Sequence record: PZ445540.1
Strand: one strand, 5' to 3'
Origin: a phage
Length of the DNA: 40,233 nucleotides
Part shown: piece after piece, positions 7,719-35,275 of the stretch
Numbering within the stretch: position 1 is the first letter of the stretch
How the letters are laid out: every line of letters starts with the position of its first letter
Notes under the pieces: generated by a model
What the model was told of the DNA's origin: nothing
The model's input: the letters and a program-made list of their open reading frames with translations, nothing else
The model's database searches: none
Position numbers and translations under genes: made by a program

Positions 7719-10700
7719 TTGATGGCAACATTACGTGAGTTAATAATCAAAATTTCCGCTAACTCGCAGTCATTCCAGTCGGAAATTTCCCGCGCCTCAC
7801 GCATGGGGCAGGATTATTACCGAACCATGCAAAATGGCGGTCGGCAGGCTGCCGCTGCCGCCCGAGAGAGCGAAAGGGCGTTATCTGATCTGACCGCTGG
7901 GTTTGCATCGGCAGGAAGAGCCGCTGCTGCTGCTACGGCCGCTTTTGCGACTGGTAAGCTCGTGCAGATTGCTGATGAGTGGAATTCAGTAAACGCCCGT
8001 CTTAAGCAGGCATCATCTTCAGCTGATGATTTTGCTGCCTCTCAGCGCCAGTTAATGGAAATCAGCCAAAGAACTGGCACCGCGTTTTCAGACAACGCAA
8101 ACCTTTTTTCACGCGCAGCTGCTTCAATGCGTGAGTTTGGGTATAGCTCTGACGAAGTTCTGAAAATTACCGAAGCTGTTTCTACCGGCCTTAAACTTTC
8201 GGGGGCTAATACTCAGGAAGCGAGTTCTGTTATCACTCAATTCAGCCAGGCTCTGGCGCAGGGCGTTCTTCGCGGTGAAGAATTCAACGCCGTTAACGAA
8301 GCAGGTGATCGTGTTATCCGCGCACTTGCCGCCGGAATGGGCGTGGCCCGCAAAGACCTGAAGAGCATGGCTGACCAGGGGCAACTTACGATTGATAAGG
8401 TTGTTCCTGCATTAATGAGCCAGTTGGGCTCATTACAGGGTGAGTTTGCCAGCATGCCGCAAACAGTTTCCGGATCCCTGCAAAAAGTCACAAACTCGTT
8501 CATGGCATGGGTTGGAGGTGTCAACCAGGCTACAGGTGCTACCGATGCGCTATCTGGTGGCCTAGACGGAGTTGCCCAAACGCTTGATTCATTTACCTCT
8601 TCGGCAGTAAGCGGCGCACTAAGTGATGTTGCAGACAATATGTCCACGATCACAACAGTGGCGGGTGCACTTGTTGGCGTTGGGCTGGCAAGGTATCTCA
8701 GTGGAGTAGTAACTAGCGCCACGAGCGCAACCGGCGCGCTAATTTCTGCGGCTAAGTCAGAGGTTGCTCTTGCCGTTGCACAGGATAAGGCTGCACAGTC
8801 TGCCGTTGCCGCCTCAAGGGCGGAGGTTTATAGGGCTCAGCAAGCTGTACAGAGATCGCGTAGCGCAGATGTTCAGGCTGCGCAGCAAGAGAAAATTGCT
8901 GCGGCAGAAGCAAAAGTCACTGCAGCCCAGGCCAGGCTGACTACCGCTCTAGCCAGCGGTTCTGCTACAGAGAAAGTCAGGGCCAGAACTGCACTTGAGC
9001 GTGCACAGGCAGGGCTGGTGGCTGCAAAAAATTCTGACGCTCAAGCTGCTGCAGAAAGGCGTCTGTCCGCGACCCAGGCTTCCTTAAACCGGAACCTTGC
9101 AAACCGTGTTTCGGCTCAAAGCAATCTCAATAGCGTGACATCCGTCGGCACTCGGCTCATGAGTGGTGCACTTGGTCTCATCGGTGGAGTTCCTGGTTTA
9201 GTTATGTTGGGTGCTGGAGCCTGGTATGCGATGTATCAAAACCAGGAGCAGGCACGTCGCTCTGCCCAGGAATACGCCAGTCAAATCGACGAAATACGAG
9301 AAAAAACTTCCCGCATGTCTTTGTCTGAAACAGACGACAATAGGGGGAGAACTGTTGGTGCTCTGGTAGAGCAAAATCGTTTGGTTGATGAGCAAGCCAA
9401 AAAGGTTGGTGAGCTGAAGAACCAGATCGACGATTTGAATGCATCGCGTGGAAAACCGGGCATTACCAGCGAGAACGATGCAAATATACTGAGAGCGATA
9501 GCTATCGTTACGGATCAACTTGCTGTTGAAGAGGGAAAATTAAATGACATGCGAGATAAATCTCGCGGCATACAGCAGGCTCTCGAAGAAATTGAGCGAC
9601 GTCGCAATGATTTAATACGCGAACAAGCCTGGCGACAGAATGCGGTATATCAGTCGATGATCATGATGAATGGTCAGCATACTGAATTTAACCGTCTGCT
9701 GGGGCTGGGAAATCAGCTATTAATGGCCCGGCAAGGGCTGGCGAACGTCCCTCTCAGACTTCCTCAGGCCGACCTCGACAAAAAGCAAACCGATGCCCTC
9801 GAAAAGAGCCGTCGGGATCTTGAGTTGTCACGCCTGAAGGGTGAGGCCAAAGAGCGCCTGCGTCTGAGTTATGCAGCCGATGACCTGGGGTTAACCAGTG
9901 ATCCGCAATTCCAGACAGGCCGTCAGGAGTTGATTAATAACGGTCTTGCTGAATGGCGGAATAATGAGGCCAACAAACCTAAGGCGAAGGGTGGTAAAAC
10001 CGAAGGCGAGAAAACCGAGGATGTGTATAAGCGCCTTATCAAGCAGCAAAAAGAGCAGATTGCCCTGCAAGGCCAGAATACTGAACTGGCGAAGGTTAAA
10101 TACCAGGTCAGCCAGGGCGAGCTTGCTTCTCTGACAGAAGCCCAGAAAAAGACGGTATTGCAGAATGCTGCGCTCATTGACCAGGTTAAATTGCGTGAGC
10201 AACTGCGAAATTACGAAGCCAACCTTGCTGACAGTAACGCCAGCGCCCGCGCAGCCAATGAAGCGCAACTGCTGGGCTATGGGCAGGGAACCAGGTTCCG
10301 TGAAAGACTTCAGGAGCAGTTCAATCTGCGTAAGGAGTTTGAGCAGAAGAATACCGATCTTCTCCGCCAGCGTCAGGCTGGTGAAATCGACGAGACGTTC
10401 TATCAGCAGGGGCTGGCACTTAATAAGCGCTACCTCGAAGAGCGCCTGCGCGACCAGGAGGGATATTACGCAGCTTCTGATGCTCAGCGTGACGACTGGA
10501 TGACGGGACTGTCTGAGGGTTATGCGAACTGGGTGGACGAAGCCACTGATTATTCTTCCATGGCCGCTGACGGCATGAAGCAGGCCATGGGTGGCGCGGT
10601 CACCACGATCACCGACATGCTCAATGGCAACGTTGACAGCTGGAAGGACTGGGGCGTGAGCGTACTGAAGATTATCCAGAACGTTCTGGTGAACATGGCT

Positions 10701-11198
10701 GTTGCTAATGGCGTCAGCTCAATTGGATCACTGTTCAGTTTTGGTGCCTCGTCAGCCGCAACCGCCAGCAGCGGTACCGCTATTCAGAATGCTGGCGCGA
10801 ACTTCACATTTAATGCGAAGGGTAATGTTTACGACTCTCCGTCCCTGAGCGCTTACAGCAATGGCGTTTTCCAGACGCCTCAGCTGTTTGCTTTTGCCAA
10901 AGGCGCAGGGGTTTTTGCCGAGGCTGGGCCGGAAGCGATCATGCCACTTACCCGCGCGCCGGATGGTTCTCTCGGCGTTCGTGCGGTCGGAGGTGGCGGC
11001 GGTCAGTCTGTATCTTCGGCGCCACAGGTTTATATCACCATCGATGGCAACGGCAACACTCAAACACAGGCCTCGCCAGGCCTTGAGCAATTTGGTGCCG
11101 AGGTCGGGGAATTTGTTGATCGACGTTATAAGCAGAATGTGATGCGTGACATTCGTCCCGGCGGCGACATCTGGAACGCAATGAAAGGAACCCGATAA
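7719..11198 (+). CDS. tail tape measure protein
   Basis: 1159 aa, Ala/Gln-rich coiled-coil protein with C-terminal Gly-rich segment; canonical position. Confidence 0.9.
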   Translation: MMATLRELIIKISANSQSFQSEISRASRMGQDYYRTMQNGGRQAAAAARESERALSDLTAGFASAGRAAAAATAAFATGKLVQIADEWNSVNARLKQASSSADDFAASQRQLMEISQRTGTAFSDNANLFSRAAASMREFGYSSDEVLKITEAVSTGLKLSGANTQEASSVITQFSQALAQGVLRGEEFNAVNEAGDRVIRALAAGMGVARKDLKSMADQGQLTIDKVVPALMSQLGSLQGEFASMPQTVSGSLQKVTNSFMAWVGGVNQATGATDALSGGLDGVAQTLDSFTSSAVSGALSDVADNMSTITTVAGALVGVGLARYLSGVVTSATSATGALISAAKSEVALAVAQDKAAQSAVAASRAEVYRAQQAVQRSRSADVQAAQQEKIAAAEAKVTAAQARLTTALASGSATEKVRARTALERAQAGLVAAKNSDAQAAAERRLSATQASLNRNLANRVSAQSNLNSVTSVGTRLMSGALGLIGGVPGLVMLGAGAWYAMYQNQEQARRSAQEYASQIDEIREKTSRMSLSETDDNRGRTVGALVEQNRLVDEQAKKVGELKNQIDDLNASRGKPGITSENDANILRAIAIVTDQLAVEEGKLNDMRDKSRGIQQALEEIERRRNDLIREQAWRQNAVYQSMIMMNGQHTEFNRLLGLGNQLLMARQGLANVPLRLPQADLDKKQTDALEKSRRDLELSRLKGEAKERLRLSYAADDLGLTSDPQFQTGRQELINNGLAEWRNNEANKPKAKGGKTEGEKTEDVYKRLIKQQKEQIALQGQNTELAKVKYQVSQGELASLTEAQKKTVLQNAALIDQVKLREQLRNYEANLADSNASARAANEAQLLGYGQGTRFRERLQEQFNLRKEFEQKNTDLLRQRQAGEIDETFYQQGLALNKRYLEERLRDQEGYYAASDAQRDDWMTGLSEGYANWVDEATDYSSMAADGMKQAMGGAVTTITDMLNGNVDSWKDWGVSVLKIIQNVLVNMAVANGVSSIGSLFSFGASSAATASSGTAIQNAGANFTFNAKGNVYDSPSLSAYSNGVFQTPQLFAFAKGAGVFAEAGPEAIMPLTRAPDGSLGVRAVGGGGGQSVSSAPQVYITIDGNGNTQTQASPGLEQFGAEVGEFVDRRYKQNVMRDIRPGGDIWNAMKGTR

Positions 11199-11200
11199 TT

Positions 11201-11539
11201 ATGGCCATTGAAACTTTCACCTGGTGCCCTCGGATTAACGCGGAGGCTGATACAAGTTTCCGCGTCAGGAAAGCCCAGTTTGGCGATGGATATGAGCAGG
11301 TTTCAGGGGATGGATTGAACACCAGAACTCAGCAGTGGACGCTTAACTTCACTGGCAACGAAACCTACATTTCTGCCATTAAGTCTTTTCTCGACAGGCA
11401 TGAAGGAACGAAAGCCTTTCAGTGGAAGCCGCCGCTCGAGCCTTTGGGTTTGTATCGTTGCGAAACGTATAAACCCACCGGGCTGGGCGCGGGGAAATTC
11501 AACCTTGAAGCAACATTCATCCAGGCATTTAAACCATGA
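11201..11539 (+). CDS. minor tail protein (lambda M-like)
   Basis: 112 aa immediately after the tape measure; size and position match lambda gpM. Confidence 0.75.
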   Translation: MAIETFTWCPRINAEADTSFRVRKAQFGDGYEQVSGDGLNTRTQQWTLNFTGNETYISAIKSFLDRHEGTKAFQWKPPLEPLGLYRCETYKPTGLGAGKFNLEATFIQAFKP

Positions 11540-12294
11540 GCTTAAACGCAGACTATCAGAAGCTTGAATCCGGAAACGATGTTCGTCTGATTGAGGTGGA
11601 CGGTTCTTCCTTTGGGCTAACGGACGTTCTCCGCTTTCACAATTACCGCATTCCCCACACGGAAGCGGAAATCATCGCCGCTGGTGGGGATGAGTCCAAG
11701 CTTCCGGCGAAACCAATCTGGTGGCAGGGAAATGAATACGCCGCCTGGCCGTATCAGTTGGAAGGCCTGGAAAAATCAACCAGTGGGAGCAATGCAACGC
11801 CATCACTGACGGTTGCGAACATCGAAAGCTCTATTTCTGCCCTGTGTCTTGCCTATGACGATCTGCTGCAGGCGAAAGTCACTATTCACGACACAAAAGA
11901 GAAATATCTCGATGCCAGAAATTTCGCGGACGGCAACCCCACAGCAGACCCGACTCAGGAAAAGCTGCAGGTCTGGTATATCGACGGGAAAACGGGCGAG
12001 CTTGCCGGTGAAACCGTTGAATTTGTTCTGTCCAGCCCGATGGACCTGCAGGGGCAAATGATCCCGACGCGACAGCTTCATTCCCTGTGTACCTGGTGCA
12101 TCCGGAATAAATATCGTACCGGCGACGGCTGCGACTATGCCGGCACCCGCTATTTCGATAAAAACAACAACCCGGTAAGCGATCCGTCGCTGGATGAATG
12201 CAACGGCACGCTGACGGCCTGCAAACTCCGATTCGGCGAAAATAACGAACTCTCGTTTGGTGGCTTCCCGGGCACGTCTTTGATCAGGAGCTGA
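11536..12294 (+). CDS. minor tail protein (lambda L-like)
   Basis: 252 aa; C-terminal Cys cluster (CTWC...C...C...C) as in lambda gpL; overlapping start. Confidence 0.78.
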   Translation: MSLNADYQKLESGNDVRLIEVDGSSFGLTDVLRFHNYRIPHTEAEIIAAGGDESKLPAKPIWWQGNEYAAWPYQLEGLEKSTSGSNATPSLTVANIESSISALCLAYDDLLQAKVTIHDTKEKYLDARNFADGNPTADPTQEKLQVWYIDGKTGELAGETVEFVLSSPMDLQGQMIPTRQLHSLCTWCIRNKYRTGDGCDYAGTRYFDKNNNPVSDPSLDECNGTLTACKLRFGENNELSFGGFPGTSLIRS

Positions 12295-12295
12295 T

Positions 12296-13006
12296 ATGCG
12301 GCAGAAAACCATTGATGCCATTATGGCGCATGCTGCAGCTGAATATCCTCGCGAATGCTGCGGCGTGGTGGCGCAGAAAAGCCGCGTTGAACGTTATTTC
12401 CCGTGCCGGAATCTTGCCGCGGCGCCGGAGGACAATTTTGTCCTTTGCCCAGAAGACTATGCAGCTGCTGAGGACTGGGGCACGGTGATCGCCATCGCGC
12501 ACAGTCACCCTGATGCCACGACACAGCCGAGCGAACTGGATAAAGCGCAATGCGATGCAACGCTTTTACCCTGGCACATCGTGAGCTGGCCTGAGGGGGA
12601 TTTACGCACCATCCAGCCGCGCGGAGAACTGCCGCTTCTGGAGCGTCCGTTTGTGCTTGGACACTTCGACTGCTGGGGGCTGGTAATGAGCTATTTCCGG
12701 CAAACACATGGGATTGAGTTGCACGACTACCGGGTTGATTATCCCTGGTGGGAAAACGACTATCCGGATAACTTCTATCAGGACTGTTGGTATGAGTGCG
12801 GATTCCGTGAATTCGACGGGCCACCGAAACCCGGAGATATGGTGATCATGCAGGTCCAGGCTGATAAGTGGAATCACGCGGGGATTCTTCTGGAGGGAAA
12901 TATGCTACTCCACCACCTGTATGGACATCTGAGCCAGCGCGTGCCGTATGGTGGCTATTGGCAGGAAAGAACGATGAAGATTTTACGTTACAAATCTCTG
13001 TGCTAA
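12296..13006 (+). CDS. tail assembly protein (lambda K-like; JAB/MPN + NlpC/P60)
   Basis: 236 aa; 'AIAHSHPD' JAMM-type motif and Cys/His hydrolase-like C-terminal half. Confidence 0.78.
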   Translation: MRQKTIDAIMAHAAAEYPRECCGVVAQKSRVERYFPCRNLAAAPEDNFVLCPEDYAAAEDWGTVIAIAHSHPDATTQPSELDKAQCDATLLPWHIVSWPEGDLRTIQPRGELPLLERPFVLGHFDCWGLVMSYFRQTHGIELHDYRVDYPWWENDYPDNFYQDCWYECGFREFDGPPKPGDMVIMQVQADKWNHAGILLEGNMLLHHLYGHLSQRVPYGGYWQERTMKILRYKSLC

Positions 13007-13038
13007 CCTCTTGTTAATTTAAACAAGGGGATGATGGA

Positions 13039-13560
13039 ATGAGGAATGTTTTAATTTTAGCGTTTGTCACATTTTTGTTTGGCTGCACTGAAAGAGCGCG
13101 ACCAGCAGATGAAATCGATCATGAAAGTGGACTGGTTAAAATATTCAGCACTAAAAATTTTAATACTGCGCAAGATAGGGCTGATATTCTTTGCGGCAAA
13201 AAATCATATTATGTGAAAGCTCTTCATGAAAGTAATTTGGTACTTTTAAGAAACAACCTCTCCGACGTATATTTGTTCGATTACATTCCTTTTCAGTGTG
13301 AGCTGAAAGCTGCCGCAAACGCGGGAAACTCTGAAGCTAAAGCGCTCTATGACAAAAAACTTACTGATGCATATCGTAATCTTGAAGAGTCTAAAAGAAA
13401 TCAGTACGAAGCGCATAAAGCTTATGCCAAAAAGCATGGGATTGATTCATATAGCACAGTAAACCCTGATGGCAGCATAGAGGCTCACACCATAGATTCC
13501 AGCGGTAACGCTTGTCATAGCACTGTCGGTATATATGGAGGGGAAACAGTCTGTGACTAA
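13039..13560 (+). CDS. lipoprotein of unknown function (moron)
   Basis: 173 aa; N-terminal signal with lipobox LFGC; ~38% GC; inserted between the K-like and I-like tail genes. Confidence 0.5.
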   Translation: MRNVLILAFVTFLFGCTERARPADEIDHESGLVKIFSTKNFNTAQDRADILCGKKSYYVKALHESNLVLLRNNLSDVYLFDYIPFQCELKAAANAGNSEAKALYDKKLTDAYRNLEESKRNQYEAHKAYAKKHGIDSYSTVNPDGSIEAHTIDSSGNACHSTVGIYGGETVCD

Positions 13561-13597
13561 TTTATGTTGCTTTAATTAGTCAATTTTCGAGGTTCAT

Positions 13598-14176
13598 ATG
13601 ACAGAAAATATGACTCAAATTGAACTCGGTGGCATTCTGGGTAAAACATTTGGGAAAATGCACTACCGGCTTATTAGTAAGACCAGTGAGGCTACTCGCA
13701 GTTTAGCGGCAACACTGGACGGTTTTGAGAAGTTTATGATCTCCAGCCAGCGGAGGGGATTAACATATGCTGTTTTTAAGGGTAAGAAAAATATAGGTCT
13801 GGATGATTTAGGCTTTCCAGTTTCCGGTGAAGTAATCCGGATTGTCCCTGTAGTAATAGGAAGTAAAAAAGCGGGATTACTGCAAACAATTCTCGGAGCG
13901 GTATTAGTGGTAGTGGGTGTGGTTACCTCTGCATATGGTGGAGCACCATTGATCGGCGCAGGTATTGGTATGATGGCTGGTGGTATCGTCCAAATGCTAT
14001 CCCCTCAGCCAACCGGACTGGCCAGCAAGCAAAGTGCAGATAACCGCGCATCATACGCGTTCGGTGGAGTGACAAACACCGCTGCTCAGGGCTACCCGGT
14101 ACCGCTGCTTTATGGTCGCCGGCGAATCGGTGGGGCAATTATTTCCGCCGGAATTTATGTCGAGGATCAGCAATGA
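13598..14176 (+). CDS. tail assembly protein (lambda I-like)
   Basis: 192 aa; position between the K-like gene and J; Gly-rich hydrophobic C-terminal half. Confidence 0.65.
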   Translation: MTENMTQIELGGILGKTFGKMHYRLISKTSEATRSLAATLDGFEKFMISSQRRGLTYAVFKGKKNIGLDDLGFPVSGEVIRIVPVVIGSKKAGLLQTILGAVLVVVGVVTSAYGGAPLIGAGIGMMAGGIVQMLSPQPTGLASKQSADNRASYAFGGVTNTAAQGYPVPLLYGRRRIGGAIISAGIYVEDQQ

Positions 14177-14439
14177 AAAAATACTTGAGATTGACTATTT
14201 CAGGCCTGCATCGCGTGGATGACGGAATCCTAATCGGCGGAAATGCGACAGTAATAGTAAACCGTGGCGGAGAGGTTATTTGTCGCGAGACACTTTCTGG
14301 CAAAGTTTCCGATAAATATTCAAAGCTATATGAAGTTGAAGATACCCTTATTCCAGTATCAGTAACGTCGTCCAGTGATTGTCCGTTTTTCAGAGCTGAA
14401 GCTGACTTTGTAAATCCATTTAGCGAAACAAACATCTAA
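14173..14439 (+). CDS. hypothetical protein
   Basis: 88 aa ORF whose ATG overlaps the I-like stop (ATGA); followed by an intrinsic terminator. Confidence 0.4.
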   Translation: MKKYLRLTISGLHRVDDGILIGGNATVIVNRGGEVICRETLSGKVSDKYSKLYEVEDTLIPVSVTSSSDCPFFRAEADFVNPFSETNI

Positions 14440-14493: not shown

Positions 14494-17400
14494 ATGGCTA
14501 CAGAAAAAGTGTTAAAGGGCCGCAAGGGCGGCAGCTCAAGTTCCCGAACCCCAACCGAACAGCCTGATGATCTGCAATCTGTAGCGAAGGCAAAAATCCT
14601 CGTTGCGCTTGGGGAAGGGGAGTTTGCAGGGCAGCTAACCGGCAAAGATATCTACCTGGACGGAACGGCACTTGAGAACGCTGACGGCTCCCAAAACTTC
14701 AGCGGCGTAACGTGGGAATTTCGCGCAGGAACGCAGGCGCAAAAATATATTCAGGGCATACCCGGTACCGAAAACGAAATCAGCGTTGGTACCGAAGTTT
14801 CCAGCACTACAGCCTGGACGCGCACATTCACCAATACGCAGCTTTCAGCGGTTCGCTTGCGTCTGAAATGGCCGTCACTCTTTAAACAGGAAAACGACGG
14901 TGATCTGGTCGGCTACTCAATAAACTATGCTATCGACCTGCAGACTGACGGCGGTATCTGGCATACGGTACTCAATACCAGTGTGACCGGGAAAACGACA
15001 TCAGGTTACGAGCGCAGCCACCGAATTGATTTACCGCAGGCTGGCAGCACCTGGACAATCAGACTGCGTAAGATTACAGCCGATGCCAATAGTGCGAAGA
15101 TCGGCGACACGATGACGCTGCAGAGCTTCACTGAGGTGATCGACGCCAAACTGCGCTACCCGAACACAGCATTGCTGTATATTGAGTTTGATTCAAGCCA
15201 GTTCAACGGCTCTATCCCGCAGATTTCATGCGAGCCGCGCGGGCGCGTTATTCGCGTTCCTGATAACTACGATCCTGAAACCAGAACATATTTCGGCACA
15301 TGGACCGGCGCCTTTAAATGGGCATGGACCGATAACCCGGCGTGGATTTTTTACGACCTGGTGGTTTCCGACCGCTTCGGTCTTGGTCACCGGCTAAGCG
15401 CGGCAAATATCGATAAATGGACGCTGTATCAGGTGGCTCAGTATTGTGATCAGAGAGTTCCTGACGGAAAGGGTGGCAGCGGTACCGAACCACGGTACAC
15501 CTGCAACGTGTACATTCAGGACCGGAACGACGCCTACACAGTCCTGCGTGATTTTGCTGCTATCTTCCGGGGCATGACCTACTGGGGCGGCAATCAAATT
15601 GTTGCTCTGGCTGACATGCCGCGTGATGTTGATTACAGCTATACGCGCGCAAACGTTATTGACGGTCGATTCACCTATTCGAGCAGTACCACGAAAAGCC
15701 GATACACTACCGCGCTGGTATCATGGTCCGATCCAGATAATGCCTACGCCGACGCTATGGAGCCGGTATTTGAGCAGTCGCTGGTTGCGCGGTACGGTTT
15801 TAACCAACTGGAAATGACCGCCATCGGCTGCACCAGGCAGTCAGAGGCAAACCGAAAGGGGCGCTGGGGTATTCTCACCAACAACAAGGATCGCGTTGTT
15901 TCGTTTGATGTGGGCCTGGACGGAAACATACCACAGCCAGGCTACATCATCGCCGTGGCTGACGAACTGCTGTCCGGAAAGGTAATGGGTGGCCGCATCA
16001 GCGAAGTTAACGGTCGCGTTATCAGGCTTGATCGTGTTCCTGATGCGACTGCAGGTGATCGCCTTATTCTGAACCTTCCATCTGGAGCTTCGCAGAGCCG
16101 CACCATTCAGGCGGTAAACGGTGAGTCGGTAACTGTCACAACCACGTACAGTGAGACGCCACAGCCCGAAGCAGTTTGGCTGGTGGAATCAAACGAGCTC
16201 TACGCGCAACAGTACCGCGTTGTCAGTGTGAGCGATAACAATAATGGTACCTTCTCAATCACTGCGGCATTTCATGACCCGGACAAATACGCCAGAATTG
16301 ATACCGGCGCGATTATCGACCAGCGACCGATTAGTGTTATTCCGCCGGGAAACCAGTCCGCACCAGCCAACATCGTAATCAGCTCGTTTTCTGTGGTTCA
16401 GCAGAATATCAGCGTCGAAACCATGCGCGTAAGCTGGGACCAGGCAAAAAATGCCATCGCCTATGAGGCACAGTGGCGCCGTAACGACGGGAACTGGGTG
16501 AACATGCCGCGCAGCTCCACCACGTCATTTGACGTCCCGGGGATTTATGCCGGGCGCTACCTGGTGCGCGTGCGCGCAATTAATGCCGCTGAAATTTCCT
16601 CAGGATGGGGATATTCAGAAGAGAAGACACTGACCGGCAAAGTAGGTAATCCGCCTAAGCCAGTAGGATTCACCGCCACGGGCATTAACTGGGGGATTCG
16701 TCTTAACTGGGGTTTCCCGGCAAACACCGGCGATACGCTAAAAACGGAAATTCAGTACACTGCCAACAGTGACTTTTCAGATCCACTCTTGCTCTCAGAC
16801 GTGCCTTATCCATCTGCGGAATACACCCAGCTCGGCCTTAAAGCAGGGCAGGAATTCTGGTACCGCGCGCAGCTGGTCGACAGAACGGGTAACGAGTCCG
16901 GGTATACCGACTGGATCAGGGGGATGTCTAACGATAACGCCGATGATTATCTTGGAGATATCGCAGACGATTTCCTAACCTCTGCCGACGGGGAACGCCT
17001 CACCGGTGACATCGATACCAACATTGAGGGAATTCTACAGAACGCCCTGGCGAACCACGGAACTGTTGAGCACCAGTGGGCACAATACGGAGAAGTGCGT
17101 GCCGATATTCTGGTGGTTAAAACGACGATTGCTGAAGTTGATAATGCAATGGCCGAACTTTCGACGCAGGTGCAGGCGCAGATTGAGGATGTTACCGCTT
17201 CCCTGGAAGACAAGCTTACAGCCGTCGTTGATGCCTCTGGCGCTTCGGCTATCTACACCCTCAAAACAGGCGTGAGGATAAACGGCATCATGTATAACGC
17301 CGGGATGTCGATTGCCGTTCTGGCGCAGGCAGGGCAGCCGATTGTTACCCGAGTAGGTTTCAACGCTAACCAGTTCGTGCTGATGAGTGGCAGTGGCGAT

Positions 17401-17670
17401 ACCCAGTATTCGCCGTTCGCTGTGGTTAATGGACAGGTCTTTATCAGCTCAGCGTTTATTCAGGATGGCACGATCACCAATGCCAAAATCGGCAACTTCA
17501 TCCAGTCCAATAACTACGTTGCTGGGTCTATCGGATGGAGGCTGGATAAAAGTGGCACACTGGAAATGAATGGTGCCACATCAGGGCAGGGCAGATTAAC
17601 GCTGAATAATACCCGCATGGATGTTTATGATCAGAATGGAACGCTTCGCGTAAGAATAGGACAATTATGA
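14494..17670 (+). CDS. host specificity protein / central tail fibre (lambda J-like)
   Basis: 1058 aa; size, position after the I-like gene and fibronectin-III-like central region. Confidence 0.88.
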   Translation: MATEKVLKGRKGGSSSSRTPTEQPDDLQSVAKAKILVALGEGEFAGQLTGKDIYLDGTALENADGSQNFSGVTWEFRAGTQAQKYIQGIPGTENEISVGTEVSSTTAWTRTFTNTQLSAVRLRLKWPSLFKQENDGDLVGYSINYAIDLQTDGGIWHTVLNTSVTGKTTSGYERSHRIDLPQAGSTWTIRLRKITADANSAKIGDTMTLQSFTEVIDAKLRYPNTALLYIEFDSSQFNGSIPQISCEPRGRVIRVPDNYDPETRTYFGTWTGAFKWAWTDNPAWIFYDLVVSDRFGLGHRLSAANIDKWTLYQVAQYCDQRVPDGKGGSGTEPRYTCNVYIQDRNDAYTVLRDFAAIFRGMTYWGGNQIVALADMPRDVDYSYTRANVIDGRFTYSSSTTKSRYTTALVSWSDPDNAYADAMEPVFEQSLVARYGFNQLEMTAIGCTRQSEANRKGRWGILTNNKDRVVSFDVGLDGNIPQPGYIIAVADELLSGKVMGGRISEVNGRVIRLDRVPDATAGDRLILNLPSGASQSRTIQAVNGESVTVTTTYSETPQPEAVWLVESNELYAQQYRVVSVSDNNNGTFSITAAFHDPDKYARIDTGAIIDQRPISVIPPGNQSAPANIVISSFSVVQQNISVETMRVSWDQAKNAIAYEAQWRRNDGNWVNMPRSSTTSFDVPGIYAGRYLVRVRAINAAEISSGWGYSEEKTLTGKVGNPPKPVGFTATGINWGIRLNWGFPANTGDTLKTEIQYTANSDFSDPLLLSDVPYPSAEYTQLGLKAGQEFWYRAQLVDRTGNESGYTDWIRGMSNDNADDYLGDIADDFLTSADGERLTGDIDTNIEGILQNALANHGTVEHQWAQYGEVRADILVVKTTIAEVDNAMAELSTQVQAQIEDVTASLEDKLTAVVDASGASAIYTLKTGVRINGIMYNAGMSIAVLAQAGQPIVTRVGFNANQFVLMSGSGDTQYSPFAVVNGQVFISSAFIQDGTITNAKIGNFIQSNNYVAGSIGWRLDKSGTLEMNGATSGQGRLTLNNTRMDVYDQNGTLRVRIGQL

Positions 17671-17933
17671 TGATAAAATTTTTGGCTATTACAACCTGTT
17701 TTATCCTGACTGGATGCGCTTATAAAGAATCAACGGTTGCTGCTGACTGCACAGCAGTTTATACGCTGAAAACATTTGTGGTCGGAGGTGATTATCCTGT
17801 CAAGATTAATGCGGTCAGGCATGACAGATTTGGGCGAGTTTATTATCGTGCAGCACCAGGGCAATCGTATGTGAATTTTTATGGTCGCTGGCAGCCAGCG
17901 GCTTCATTTAAGCATGGAGACTGCCCACGATGA
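17670..17933 (+). CDS. small lipoprotein (Cor/Llp-like superinfection-exclusion candidate)
   Basis: 87 aa; signal peptide with lipobox LTGC; start overlaps the J stop; position immediately 3' of J. Confidence 0.45.
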   Translation: MIKFLAITTCFILTGCAYKESTVAADCTAVYTLKTFVVGGDYPVKINAVRHDRFGRVYYRAAPGQSYVNFYGRWQPAASFKHGDCPR

Positions 17934-18202
17934 GCTATGGATACCAAATATTTGATGCTACTGGGGTGGATGTAACTGGCCTGATCACCCCCGTATTTTT
18001 CCTTGACAAGTTGACATCGCCATCAGGGACCAAAACATACCCTGCCCCACCGGCAGGTAAAACGCTTAAGGCATTAGTGATAAATTCCATGCTCTGGAAT
18101 GGTTCTACAGGTAATTCGTCAGTTAGCGTCAGCGGAAATACTGTGACGTGGAGCGGTCTTGCAGGGAATTCTACATTTTTTGCCATGGTTTACTGGGGGT
18201 AG
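17930..18202 (+). CDS. hypothetical protein
   Basis: 90 aa; RBS GGAGA; begins MSYGYQIF, the same motif as the next gene. Confidence 0.4.
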   Translation: MSYGYQIFDATGVDVTGLITPVFFLDKLTSPSGTKTYPAPPAGKTLKALVINSMLWNGSTGNSSVSVSGNTVTWSGLAGNSTFFAMVYWG

Positions 18203-18204
18203 TG

Positions 18205-18822
18205 ATGTCATATGGTATGCAGATTTTGCGGCCGGACGGAAATTTATGGCTAAGTCCTGAGGTAACACCGATGAACCTTATTGATAAAGGTGTCATGGCT
18301 GGAACTAAGGGCGAGGTATTTCAGACGCGCATCCCATCAGGAATACCGGCTATCTTCTTTGTAAGAATGCAGAATGAATTGTACGCATCATTCAGCCAGA
18401 TTGACCAAAACGGATACAACTCACTCAGGATCGATGCTAATGCAGGTGTGGGGAGTATCCATATTTATGCTTTTGCTGCGATGGTAGTTGCTCCTCCAGC
18501 ATTTGGGATCGCGATGTATGACGCTTCAGGGAAAATGATTTATCACGGAAATATGAGGCCACTTGAGTGCTATCAGGTTGCAAGTCAGGGAACAAAAACC
18601 CGTATTGATGTTGGATATCTTGCCGCCGTGTGTCCTGTGCAGATGTCAGTATATTCAGTTGTTAACTCATCGGTTGGTGGATGGAATATATTCGTATCTT
18701 CATCATCAGCAAGTGGAAGCATTGTTTCCACGCCAAGCCGACAAGTTGCAAACACATCTGGTCCGGCAGGGTTCATATGGAGCAATTCAATGTTGGTCAT
18801 TAATGCATCAAAATATGATTAA
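18205..18822 (+). CDS. hypothetical protein (shares N-terminal motif with upstream gene)
   Basis: Internal ATG at 18205 with RBS GGGGG; ~205 aa; begins MSYGMQIL. Confidence 0.45.
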   Translation: MSYGMQILRPDGNLWLSPEVTPMNLIDKGVMAGTKGEVFQTRIPSGIPAIFFVRMQNELYASFSQIDQNGYNSLRIDANAGVGSIHIYAFAAMVVAPPAFGIAMYDASGKMIYHGNMRPLECYQVASQGTKTRIDVGYLAAVCPVQMSVYSVVNSSVGGWNIFVSSSSASGSIVSTPSRQVANTSGPAGFIWSNSMLVINASKYD

Positions 18823-18831
18823 GGAGTCATA

Positions 18832-20001
18832 ATGTCTGCAGGAACTATCACCCTGACAAATGGGTCCGCTGTTGTTGCCGGTACCGGAACCTCATTCGCA
18901 ACCGAGCTCGCCGCTGGTGATTTCATTGTTTCGACTGTGGGCGGTGTGCCCTACACGTTGCCGGTGAAAACAGTCGACAGTAATACCCAACTGACGCTAG
19001 TCAGCAACTTTACCGGGCCAACACAATCCGGCGCAGCCTGGTCTGCCGTTCCTCGCATTGCACTCAATATGGTTACGGCTGCGCTGGTGGCGCAAAGTGC
19101 CGAAGCACTACGAGGCCTGAACTACGACAAACGGAACTGGCAGCAGGTCTTCAGTGGAGCGGGGGATATCACTGTCACAATGCCGGATGGAACACAGTAT
19201 TCCGGTCCATCATGGCCTTCAATTGTCTCCTCTGTCAGCGGAAAGCTATCCTCTGACGCAACTACTCTAAGAAAGCTATTCACCGCTGCATTTGTGAATC
19301 CAGGGGATAACTGGCCGTATCCAGGAGTTACTACATATAATAACAATTTGTGGGGAAGCCCCAGCCAGTGGGGGACTGTACTTACGCTCTCTAATCAGGA
19401 TGTATCAGGTAGTAGTTACGATGGGCGCTGGTATAGTTACCTTCAGATAGATACCACTGGCAACTTTGCCGTTGCAGCGAACATTAACAATAACTTCTTC
19501 GGTGTCTACAGGGTCTGGACTACTAAAAACACAACTGTTGATGGCTCAGGCTTCATCAAGCGCGCCTCGCCGATTGCAAGACTGGTCGCAGACACTTCAA
19601 TTATGAGCGGCGAGTTTACTGACTCGTTTAAAATCTCCGGCAGCGGTGCGGTTAATGAAGAGGCGGAAGGTGTTGATATCGAAAAGCTGGGTGATGGTAG
19701 GTATCGGATTTCCGGTTCTGACGGTCTCGCACAGGATGGGTGGCAGATCGAAGTGCCGAAAGATATTAACGGCAATCGACTTTGCTTTGTTGAGGTCACG
19801 GAGGGTCTTGAGGGTATTCTTTTAAAAGTATTCAAGCCAAAACTTGACCTTGAAACTGGAGGGATCATTGCCGGTGAGTCTTTTGACATTCCAGAGGGGC
19901 GCTGGATTGATGTGAGGCTGCAAATGCCAGCAAGCTCAGCATACAATGTCGTTCAGGGAAAAATCGCAGGGCAACTTGAATCTCAGCAAATGGCCGGATA
20001 A
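18832..20001 (+). CDS. tail fibre protein
   Basis: 389 aa; strong RBS AAGGAG; Gly/Ser/Thr-rich N-terminus typical of fibre proteins; position distal to J. Confidence 0.6.
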   Translation: MSAGTITLTNGSAVVAGTGTSFATELAAGDFIVSTVGGVPYTLPVKTVDSNTQLTLVSNFTGPTQSGAAWSAVPRIALNMVTAALVAQSAEALRGLNYDKRNWQQVFSGAGDITVTMPDGTQYSGPSWPSIVSSVSGKLSSDATTLRKLFTAAFVNPGDNWPYPGVTTYNNNLWGSPSQWGTVLTLSNQDVSGSSYDGRWYSYLQIDTTGNFAVAANINNNFFGVYRVWTTKNTTVDGSGFIKRASPIARLVADTSIMSGEFTDSFKISGSGAVNEEAEGVDIEKLGDGRYRISGSDGLAQDGWQIEVPKDINGNRLCFVEVTEGLEGILLKVFKPKLDLETGGIIAGESFDIPEGRWIDVRLQMPASSAYNVVQGKIAGQLESQQMAG

Positions 20002-33650: not shown

Positions 33651-34046
33651 ATGTCCGATCCTGTTTCTGGCACGACAGTAGCGGCTGGTGGTCTGATGGG
33701 GGCCAGCGTGTTCGGCCTGGCAACCGGCATAGATTACGGTGTGGTGTTTGGCGCATTCGCTGGTGCGGTGTTCTACGTCGCTACGGCGGTTAATATCAGC
33801 CGCCTTAAGCTGGTGGGCTACTTCATCACCTCATTCATCTTCGGCGTTATCGGCGCGCCACTGCTCGGCTCTTACTTCTCCAAATGGACGGGGTATAGCG
33901 ACAGGCCACTTGATGCGCTGGGCGCGGTAATCGTAGCCGCTATTGCTATTAAGCTGCTGACGTTCGTCAACAGTCAGGATTTGGGTAGCCTGTTTGGAAT
34001 TCTCTCGCGTTTACGTGGTGGAGGGGCCAGCAATGGTAACAAGTGA
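33651..34046 (+). CDS. holin
   Basis: 131 aa with three hydrophobic TM-like segments; first gene of the lysis cassette; RBS AGAGGGGG. Confidence 0.55.
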   Translation: MSDPVSGTTVAAGGLMGASVFGLATGIDYGVVFGAFAGAVFYVATAVNISRLKLVGYFITSFIFGVIGAPLLGSYFSKWTGYSDRPLDALGAVIVAAIAIKLLTFVNSQDLGSLFGILSRLRGGGASNGNK

Positions 34047-34338
34047 TCCGAGTGCGATGGCAAACGCAATTATCTCTGCTGTGATCGTTATTGCACTGAT
34101 GTTCTACCAGCGCGGCGGGGCGAGACATCGCCCTCTGATATCGCTGATGGCGTATTTCACGGTGCTGGTATACGCCAGCGTCCCTTTCCGTTATTTGTTC
34201 GGCCTGTACCATGAATCCCACTGGTTTGTGGTGCTGGTGAACGTCCTGATATGCGCCGCCGTTCTCTGGGCTCGGGGAAACGTAGCACGCATCATTGACG
34301 TCCTGAGGCATTCGCATGACCAAAGACGAAATTTTTAA
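34033..34338 (+). CDS. holin-like / antiholin membrane protein
   Basis: ATG 34033 with RBS GGAGGGG, ~101 aa; 2-3 TM segments; overlaps both neighbouring genes. Confidence 0.45.
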   Translation: MVTSDPSAMANAIISAVIVIALMFYQRGGARHRPLISLMAYFTVLVYASVPFRYLFGLYHESHWFVVLVNVLICAAVLWARGNVARIIDVLRHSHDQRRNF

Positions 34339-34858
34339 TGCCATCCTCGGTAAAGAGGGCGGCTACGTTAATCACCCTGACGATAAGGGCGGTCCAACTA
34401 ACTGGGGGATCACACAAGCGGTAGCTCGCGCCCACGGATTTTTCGGGGATATGCGAAACCTGACCCGCCAGCAGGCGCTAGATATCCTGACGGCCGACTA
34501 CTGGACAGGGCCACGCTTCGACCTTGTTTCTGAGGTATCACCAGCCATCGCTGCCGAACTCTGCGACACAGGCGTAAACATGGGCCCATCAGTTCAGACC
34601 AAATGGTTTCAGCGCTGGCTGAACGTGTTCAACATTCAGGGCACGCTCTATCCCGATCTGATTGCCGATGGCTTTATCGGTCCGCGAACCATCAGCGCGT
34701 TAAAAAGCTATCTTTCCCGGCGCGGAAAAGAGGGTGAGCTGGTTATGCTTCGGGCCCTGAATTGTAGCCAGGGTCAGCGTTATCTTGAGCTGGCAGAGCA
34801 GCGTAGCGCGAACGAAACATTTGTTTATGGCTGGGTAAAGGAGCGGGTGGTTATATGA
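34316..34858 (+). CDS. endolysin (glycoside hydrolase family 108-like with peptidoglycan-binding domain)
   Basis: N-terminal 'ILGKEGGYVNHPDDKGGPTNWGIT' matches the GH108 signature; 180 aa. Confidence 0.85.
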   Translation: MTKDEIFNAILGKEGGYVNHPDDKGGPTNWGITQAVARAHGFFGDMRNLTRQQALDILTADYWTGPRFDLVSEVSPAIAAELCDTGVNMGPSVQTKWFQRWLNVFNIQGTLYPDLIADGFIGPRTISALKSYLSRRGKEGELVMLRALNCSQGQRYLELAEQRSANETFVYGWVKERVVI

Positions 34859-35124
34859 CGCTTGAGATAATTACCGGACTCGTTGTCGCGGTGTTTGCTG
34901 CTATTGCCGCCGCGTTTGGCCTGGGTCATTCACGCGGAACCAGCAAAGCGGAAGCGAAAGCCGACCAGCAGCGCACCGAAGATAACGCAGCGGCAGTGGT
35001 TGCAGCAGCAGAACGCAGGGTAGAGACAACGAAAGAGGCCAGCAATGTACAGCAAACTGTTAACCACATGCCTGATGACGATGTTGATCGCGAGCTGCGC
35101 ACAAACTGGACCCGTAAAGGTTGA
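34855..35124 (+). CDS. i-spanin (Rz-like)
   Basis: 89 aa; N-terminal TM helix then charged periplasmic region; ATGA overlap with the endolysin stop; o-spanin ORF embedded/overlapping. Confidence 0.6.
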   Translation: MTLEIITGLVVAVFAAIAAAFGLGHSRGTSKAEAKADQQRTEDNAAAVVAAAERRVETTKEASNVQQTVNHMPDDDVDRELRTNWTRKG

Positions 35125-35275
35125 GGTAGTGGACACGGCTTGCGACTGGGTTAAACCCATCTACGGAACGGATCACGACTGGGATGTGCTGGATCGCCAG
35201 ACGAAGAAAGACATCCTGGCGCATAACAAAGCGTGGCAGGCGAACTGCCAGAAAGAAACCAGAGCCTCGCAATAG
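35045..35275 (+). CDS. o-spanin (Rz1-like lipoprotein)
   Basis: 76 aa; signal peptide with lipobox LIASC; starts inside the i-spanin ORF in another frame. Confidence 0.65.
   Translation: MYSKLLTTCLMTMLIASCAQTGPVKVEVVDTACDWVKPIYGTDHDWDVLDRQTKKDILAHNKAWQANCQKETRASQ

Follow-up and report, generated by a model that had tools for sequence, protein, structure and literature searches.

What does a short lipoprotein gene do when it is tucked against the end of the tail tip gene of a temperate phage, and, if it blocks a receptor, which receptor would that be? The question is raised by a gene of 87 codons at 17670..17933 (+ strand) of a phage DNA (record PZ445540.1) that we refer to, over its whole length, as the window. 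The window comprises the entire genome (40,233 bp) of SaltyDalty (‘NpD’), a temperate siphovirus of the Hendrixvirinae (bioRxiv 10.64898/2026.04.02.716166 supplement). GenBank entry PP925825.1 (Escherichia phage SaltyDalty) contains the same coding sequence (CDS), labelled ‘hypothetical protein’, in a region that is 100% identical. The original prediction had proposed, from position and protein type, an exclusion lipoprotein of the Cor/Llp kind. From its homologues, predicted fold and linkage to receptor-binding genes we infer that the product is probably a receptor blocker of the Cor/Llp superfamily, aimed most probably at BtuB.

The lipoprotein gene and its family

The ATG at 17670 shares one base with the stop codon of the tail tip gene J (TGA, 17668–17670); a second in-frame ATG at 17667 would overlap that stop as ATGA and yield an 88-aa product beginning with MM. 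At the other end, the lipoprotein stop codon (TGA, 17931–17933) overlaps, again as ATGA, the ATG (17930) of a gene for a 90-aa protein. A Shine-Dalgarno sequence, AGGA, lies upstream at 17658–17661. The predicted signal peptide, MIKFLAITTCFILTG followed by Cys, runs to the lipobox ILTG/C (Cys16) and passes the PROSITE lipoprotein rule. Residue +2 is Ala, which is no inner-membrane retention signal, so sorting to the outer membrane is predicted. The mature protein would have 72 aa, a mass of 8.1 kDa, an isoelectric point of 9.3 and Cys at mature positions 1, 12 and 70. Thus, the open reading frame (ORF) of 87 aa, its LTGC lipobox and its start at the J stop codon all stand as originally described.

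A BLASTP search matched the protein to the lipoproteins of the virulent T1-like phages KarlJaspers (Bas06, E=5.7e-24) and FritzSarasin (Bas04, E=3.3e-18), at 44–46% identity. A word-indexed search with the single protein gave only 3 near-identical clusters. The family was collected with a word-indexed search using a four-sequence profile and with an exhaustive HMMER search over 1.84 billion representatives, and comprises 35 diverged sequences of 79–108 aa from several phage lineages. Its hidden Markov model gives the window lipoprotein 99.7 bits. An equivalent G-C (or A/S-C) lipid-attachment motif occurs at the same position in 35/35 members, the residue at –2 of the lipobox deviating (N, F, W) in 3/35. 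The family motif reads D-C-x-[AG]-x-Y ... Y-P-V-K-I-N-A-V-R-x-x-R-F-G ... R-W-Q ... F ... C; among the closer 13 members 18 columns are invariant, including Cys, Arg, Trp and Phe positions. The window protein forms the most divergent branch, with 36–47% identity to the Drexlerviridae members. A tblastn search with the mature part alone retrieved 88 phage records, nearly all of them Drexlerviridae or Dhillonvirus, plus five Providencia phages.

Compared with an 85%-identical copy on contig L006, the gene has a dN/dS of 0.37 and, judged by this ratio, is under purifying selection. On the strength of its GenBank CDS, the invariant columns of its homologues and this dN/dS, we conclude that 17670..17933 is a real, conserved gene for what is predicted to be an outer-membrane lipoprotein. 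Scans of the protein against Pfam and NCBIfam gave nothing useful, and a PDB sequence search with the family profile returned only chance matches to HIV gp120. No match to the window allele was found by megablast in 5,426 complete E. coli genomes, or by two scans of the GTDB species-representative genomes, which suggests that it is rare as a resident prophage.

Two members of the family lie in other settings. In Providencia phage PSTCR4 (contig L023, 5914..6186) the homologous gene overlaps the stop codon of an upstream gene for a 1347-aa protein, annotated as hypothetical and, by position and size, possibly a J-type tail tip protein; genes of the gp22/gp23 type are not annotated downstream, where ~970 nt carry no annotation. 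The arrangement of a lipoprotein gene directly behind a large tail gene thus recurs outside E. coli phages. The other member (P0021; contig L051, 5001..5264) is 38% identical to the window lipoprotein and lies on a 62.6-kb contig among genes for DnaB, Hha and TraG_N, with no tail genes; the contig resembles a conjugative plasmid or an integrative and conjugative element. P0021 may be a receptor blocker that a plasmid retains against a phage or a colicin.

Relation to Cor and Llp

At full length, the window lipoprotein matched the Cor family of PHROGs (phrog_1119) with E=5.5e-5. Profile comparisons were made on mature domains, with 35 sequences of the new family and 60 of Cor. Aligned by hhalign, the two families gave P=1.1e-4 and a score of 26.2 over 59 columns, with both Cys aligned. 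Column-shuffled Cor controls scored 10.5±2.5 (maximum 18.8), 0/200 reaching 26.2, and the reversed alignment scored 8.7. A repeat with smaller alignments returned the same register (P=5.7e-4). The mature family also matched the receptor-blocking lipoprotein of BF23 (P=4.4e-4) and the Llp of T5 (P=6.9e-4), each score being reached by 0/100 shuffles, and all three matches keep the Cys-aligned register. By BLASTP, the mature window and BF23 lipoproteins are 31% identical along 64 columns that run from Cys to Cys (E=0.002). When Cor and the new family were combined in one alignment, the result was too divergent to serve as the seed of a locus scan. The original prediction had recognised no sequence similarity and had proposed a comparison with Cor and Llp as a check; that comparison yields matches to Cor, BF23 Llp and T5 Llp at P=1.1e-4 to 6.9e-4, a weak similarity but a reproducible one, which has to be added to the case.

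The predicted structure points the same way. The AlphaFold2 (AF2) model of the mature domain, built from 13 sequences, has a mean predicted local distance difference test (pLDDT) score of 81.9 and is all-beta, with five strands and a short helix. Foldseek found nothing significant for it in the PDB. Among viral models it retrieved the PSTCR4 lipoprotein (E=1.5e-5) and the ‘receptor-blocking protein’ of phiR2-01, a BtuB-dependent T5-like phage (probability 0.97, template modelling (TM) score 0.54). An AF2 model of T1-type Cor (pLDDT 89.9) shows the same strand order and short helix. Since the SH3-like barrel is a common fold class, the structural match to Llp is not specific by itself. In the literature, Llp and Cor are described as related at ~20% identity ‘including the intramolecular disulphide bond’ (PMC9586334), and the Llp disulfide C11–C58 is needed for function and FhuA binding (bioRxiv 10.64898/2026.03.26.714494). 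Significant in-register similarity of the mature profiles is thus found together with the same predicted fold, the combination by which we assign proteins to the Cor/Llp superfamily.

Within this superfamily, the window lipoprotein agrees best with the Bas04/Bas06 type. It shows full-length similarity to that type and is likewise the first gene of a trio beside J; bas04_0025 (FritzSarasin), bas06_0026 (KarlJaspers) and the homologues of JK16, tonnikala and Zar3M have the same family assignment, module order, tight coupling, lipobox and Cys pair. The hosts of the Bas04/Bas06-type genes are virulent phages with the module in a separate operon convergent with J, whereas SaltyDalty is a temperate N15/HK97-like phage with the module fused to the J end. 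With Cor (T1 gp30, N15 gp24, phi80, HK022) the window protein has in common that it is a small predicted outer-membrane lipoprotein linked to gp22/gp23-type genes downstream of J, with a lipobox, a conserved Cys pair (Cys12/Cys70 align with that of Cor), the motifs C-T-A-x-Y and Y-R-A and the predicted strand order. Cor differs in being ~12 residues shorter, in inactivating FhuA and having FhuA-type receptor-binding neighbours, where the genes linked here are of the BtuB type, and in standing last in its module with an intergenic region of its own, in T1 on the opposite strand.

The BF23 Llp (BF23_00171), the BtuB blocker of T5-like phages, is likewise a lipoprotein, of 88 aa, with BtuB as the presumed common target and the motifs V-x-x-V-R-x-x-DRF and W...F..GDC. 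It differs in that its gene is divergent from a pb5-type receptor-binding gene unrelated to the gp23-type protein, and in that its hhalign match is confined to the 37 N-terminal columns. T5 Llp (PDB 8A60 chain B, 7QJF) is 18% identical and targets FhuA; its gene adjoins a pb5-type receptor-binding gene, a type that is absent here, the neighbours in the window being of the gp22/gp23 type. The LptD blockers Rtp45 and bas18_0026 (PDB 9RPS) are also small lipoproteins acting from the periplasmic side and encoded with a receptor-binding protein downstream of J. Rtp45 differs in its size (~6 kDa), its disulfide (Cys30–Cys38) and a receptor that is not a TonB-dependent transporter, and no sequence relationship of either blocker to the window lipoprotein was detected.

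The three-gene module and the receptor

The lipoprotein gene belongs to a conserved, mobile module of three genes. Behind it, at 17930..18202 (+), lies the gene for the 90-aa protein, the BtuB-type counterpart of N15 gp22 and T1 gp32 (phrog_557, E=3.6e-19), 53–54% identical to its Bas04/Bas06 counterparts; it may act as an adaptor for, or an accessory to, the receptor-binding protein. After a gap of 2 nt follows, at 18205..18822 (+), the gene for a 205-aa candidate receptor-binding protein, the counterpart of N15 gp23 and T1 gp31 (phrog_425, E=8e-46). This protein is 45–48% identical to those of Bas04 and Bas06 by one comparison and 45–52% by another, evenly across all thirds including the C-terminal one, and aligns end to end with FhuA-type T1 gp31 and N15 gp23 at 20–30% identity, with a common C-terminal A-x-[KA]-Y-D. 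As a separate observation, its N-terminal 144 aa are ~40% identical to ORFs of many Stx-converting phages (for example 933W L0127 and Min27 ORF70), with which the C-terminal part is not common; the pattern suggests that an attachment domain is shared while the receptor-binding ends can be exchanged.

Linkage was assessed wherever flanking sequence sufficed. The order lipoprotein, ~90 aa, ~205 aa beside J was found in the window and in L002, L003, L006, L008–L010, L019–L022, L024 and L050; the trio is carried by Bas04, Bas06, the Dhillonvirus Zar3M, nine metagenomic or viral contigs, the distant prophage L050 and the window. On contig L052 the lipoprotein gene is followed by ORFs of 90 and 217 aa; similarity confirmed only the larger, as a gp23 homologue, and the contig yielded no match to J. 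The trio adjoins the J end in temperate-type contexts and forms a separate operon convergent with J in virulent phages, and the start/stop overlaps of the lipoprotein gene with its neighbours are conserved. Overall, the window trio is 44–54% identical to those of Bas04 and Bas06. Identity to the window is 94–97% for the trio of L022 and 85–93% for that of L006, and for the last 300 aa of the adjacent J it is 53% and 65%, respectively.

The tail around the trio is of another kind. As far as ~aa 1005, J (14494..17670, +) matches N15 gp21 at 90% identity, whereas its last ~55 aa (from ~nt 17520) are only ~50% identical, and DNA identity to J of HK225 ends near 17549. To the right, the side tail fibre gene (18832..20001, +), the N-terminal 200 aa of which are 67% identical to N15 gp25, marks the edge of the exchanged segment. 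This segment, the J tip and three genes at 17520..18822, has a GC content of 45.1%, against 53.4% in the J body and 53.0% where the fibre gene begins; Bas04 and Bas06 have 44–45%. At the equivalent site N15 and HK225 carry J-gp22-gp23-cor, and these genes are linked in T1 too. Judged from these boundaries, SaltyDalty possesses an N15/HK225-type tail in which ‘J tip+gp22+gp23+cor’ was swapped for ‘J tip'+lipoprotein+gp22'+gp23'’. The three window proteins fall in the same PHROGs as gp22, gp23 and Cor of N15/T1 (557, 425 and 1119), which, together with the alignment of gp31/gp23 with the 205-aa protein, indicates that the trio is a diverged homologue of gp22-gp23-cor with the lipoprotein gene shifted from last to first.

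The company of these genes suggests a receptor. BtuB is the terminal receptor of Bas04 and Bas06 in the BASEL collection; genome-wide screens recover btuB for both phages, and JK16 is listed as BtuB-dependent (2026 preprint). In the same preprint, >30% identity with >99% coverage was found to be receptor-specific, and against the BtuB type the 205-aa protein lies above both values. For SaltyDalty itself the receptor is given as ‘BtuB’, ‘predicted computationally’ from locus structure (bioRxiv 10.64898/2026.04.02.716166 supplement). The values 0.79 and 0.86 listed there for NpD are read here as the interface predicted TM score (ipTM) and predicted TM score (pTM) of an AlphaFold 3 (AF3) model of BtuB with the receptor-binding protein; the CDS_0023 of the preprint is, by gene count, probably the 205-aa protein, the mapping of coordinates being uncertain. 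Since the co-inherited genes are 45–54% identical to the BtuB-type locus and 20–30% to the FhuA type, BtuB is likely to be the target of the lipoprotein and is our best guess. The Cor/Llp-type candidate of the original prediction therefore stands as to kind, with homology, fold and linkage to a receptor module now added; its membership of the curated Cor family does not, and the expected target shifts from FhuA to BtuB because of the identity of the neighbours.

Proposed action and competing explanations

We suggest that the lipoprotein would be anchored in the inner leaflet of the outer membrane as a small beta-barrel tied by a Cys12–Cys70 disulfide. From the periplasmic side it would bind the terminal receptor that the phage itself uses, most probably BtuB, the TonB-dependent B12 transporter, and lock this receptor in a state that the 205-aa receptor-binding protein cannot use, preventing binding at the cell surface. 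Its main role would probably be to keep progeny and late superinfecting phages from being wasted on the receptors of infected cells and debris. The structures of Llp–FhuA (PMC9586334) and Rtp45–LptDE (PMC12685063) offer analogues, in which periplasmic lipoproteins abolish binding of the receptor-binding protein. In temperate phages, lipoproteins encoded in structural gene clusters exclude phages with OmpA or LamB as receptor (PMC11893012), and protection of progeny from the lysing cell and its debris is a proposed role of Cor and Llp (PMC11990801). Because BtuB, like FhuA, is a TonB-dependent transporter, the ‘reverse allostery’ of Llp is a reasonable model by analogy.

Several findings speak against this explanation. 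With the signal peptide removed, the PHROG search gave no match for the window lipoprotein and E=0.028 for that of Bas06: the PHROG match to Cor is carried largely by the signal peptide. The NCBIfam Cor model NF047972, with a curated cut-off of 31 bits, reported no match for the window lipoprotein; it scored the Bas06 lipoprotein at 19.5, T1 Cor at 55.8 and N15 Cor at 134.5 bits. Canonical Cor was not among the sequences that the exhaustive profile search of 1.84 billion proteins returned at E<=0.001. By curated criteria the window lipoprotein is not a member of the Cor family, and its similarity to Cor and Llp is weak, with hhalign probabilities of only 27–56%. The lipoprotein family is known from sequence and predicted structure, and lipid modification, the disulfide, BtuB binding, exclusion and expression timing are all things that we infer. 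As to the receptor, BtuB is deduced from neighbours that are 45–50% identical, the J tip is equally distant (~50%) from BtuB-type and FhuA-type tips and bears no receptor signature, and T5 pb5 and the BF23 receptor-binding protein use different receptors at ~30% identity (2026 preprint). A promoter scan around the lipoprotein gene stayed at chance (5 sites against 5.4±2.6 expected), and expression from the prophage, the ‘lysogenic conversion’ of classical cor, is unsupported. When the surroundings of the gene and the region upstream of the Bas06 trio were scanned for promoters and terminators, the numbers did not rise above those expected by chance. Coupling to J and the receptor-binding genes, taken with these chance-level promoters, points to late co-expression with the tail genes.

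The main alternative keeps a blocker of this kind and changes its target, to another TonB-dependent transporter (such as YncD, FepA or CirA) or to an unknown receptor. The divergent position of the window lipoprotein (36–47% identity to Drexlerviridae members) would suit it, as would a J tip unlike either type, the purely computational assignment of BtuB to SaltyDalty and the receptor switches seen at ~30% identity among T5-like receptor-binding proteins. The 205-aa protein, however, resembles the BtuB type throughout its length and above the >30%/>99% criterion, and the AF3 model with BtuB in the preprint is confident if 0.79 is indeed the ipTM; we regard another target as unlikely, if still worth keeping in mind.

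A further explanation, which we think rather improbable, denies exclusion altogether and makes the protein a periplasmic accessory of infection or release: a helper of the receptor-binding protein or of DNA entry, an o-spanin-like protein or a host-fitness moron. The gene appears always to be co-transcribed with the two receptor-binding-module genes, and no independent promoter was seen, both of which would suit an accessory. Yet a Sec-exported, lipid-anchored protein cannot enter virions assembled in the cytoplasm, which makes a role in the virion or its assembly unlikely, and the protein resembles Cor and Llp both in fold and by remote homology. The lone family member on the plasmid-like contig fits a stand-alone protective function. 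As for release, the genome has a lysis cassette of its own, in which 34855..35275 contains an Rz-like spanin gene and, overlapping it, a candidate o-spanin. We rejected the o-spanin assignment: the cassette (33651..35275; holins, endolysin, spanins) is complete, and the lipoprotein gene lies 17 kb away among tail genes. The Rz-like gene (34855..35124, +; phrog_1026) is overlapped by an out-of-frame lipoprotein ORF (35045..35275, +; lipobox IAS/C), the o-spanin candidate.

That the gene encodes a functional Cor blocking FhuA, as in N15, HK022, phi80 and T1, would be suggested by the N15-like tail backbone, with its J 90% identical to N15 gp21, and by the full-length PHROG 1119 match. That match, however, comes from the signal peptide, NCBIfam finds no Cor, the gp23-type protein is only 20–30% identical to the FhuA type, and the J tip and the three genes downstream are replaced relative to N15 and HK225. 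It is this replacement that makes FhuA an unlikely target, and we consider the possibility very slight. A spurious or decaying, functionless ORF, to which the shortness of the gene, its annotation as hypothetical and its absence from the 5,426 E. coli genomes and GTDB representatives might be held to point, is hardly credible given 35 deeply conserved sequences with invariant residues, a dN/dS of 0.37 and preserved start/stop overlaps.

The window contains other small genes in the tail region. One, a 173-aa ORF at 13039..13560 (+) that also encodes a lipoprotein (lipobox LFG/C; phrog_18989), is inserted between K (12296..13006) and I (13598..14176), genes that are adjacent in N15 and HK225; its only relative among phages, 34% identical, comes from Salmonella phage SSU5. 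This gene, too, may act in exclusion or be a moron. Between I and J, an 88-aa ORF at 14173..14439 (+) matches phrog_2571; F845_gp20 of HK225, a ‘hypothetical protein’ CDS of 267 nt, also lies between I and J and is likened to it by position only. In PP925825.1, which has 36,900 bp, 3.3 kb (window 10514..13838) are missing relative to the 40,233-bp version; the tape-measure gene is thereby fused to the middle of gene I, and M, L, K and the 173-aa lipoprotein gene are lost.

The kind of element described here, and the prediction of BtuB for SaltyDalty in the preprint, were already known. New are the placement of an unannotated gene in a defined family, the statistical evidence, obtained in the absence of the signal peptide, that ties this family to Cor, BF23 Llp and T5 Llp, the homology of whole modules with permuted gene order, and the recombination boundaries in SaltyDalty. 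A gene deposited as ‘hypothetical’ thereby gains a functional hypothesis, with its expected target corrected from FhuA to BtuB. For the small siphoviruses, the analysis shows the BtuB-type locus to be a diverged copy of the classical gp22-gp23-cor locus and not an unrelated invention. All three phages, SaltyDalty, Bas04 and Bas06, can be grown on E. coli K-12.

It is possible, if doubtful, that the trio is one ancient cassette, which diverged as a unit from FhuA-type gp22-gp23-cor towards another TonB-dependent transporter, had its order permuted, moves among virulent T1-like phages, temperate lambdoid and N15-like phages and plasmids, and in a temperate phage shuts down BtuB. If so, sensitivity of the host to E colicins and BF23, and its B12 uptake, would also be altered, and receptor-binding protein and blocker would co-diversify; the blocker family could then reveal the receptor of a phage from sequence, or allow matched pairs of receptor and blocker to be assembled. 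Receptor-blocking lipoproteins set cross-resistance among phages that share a receptor, which matters for phage cocktails, colicin sensitivity and host-range engineering.

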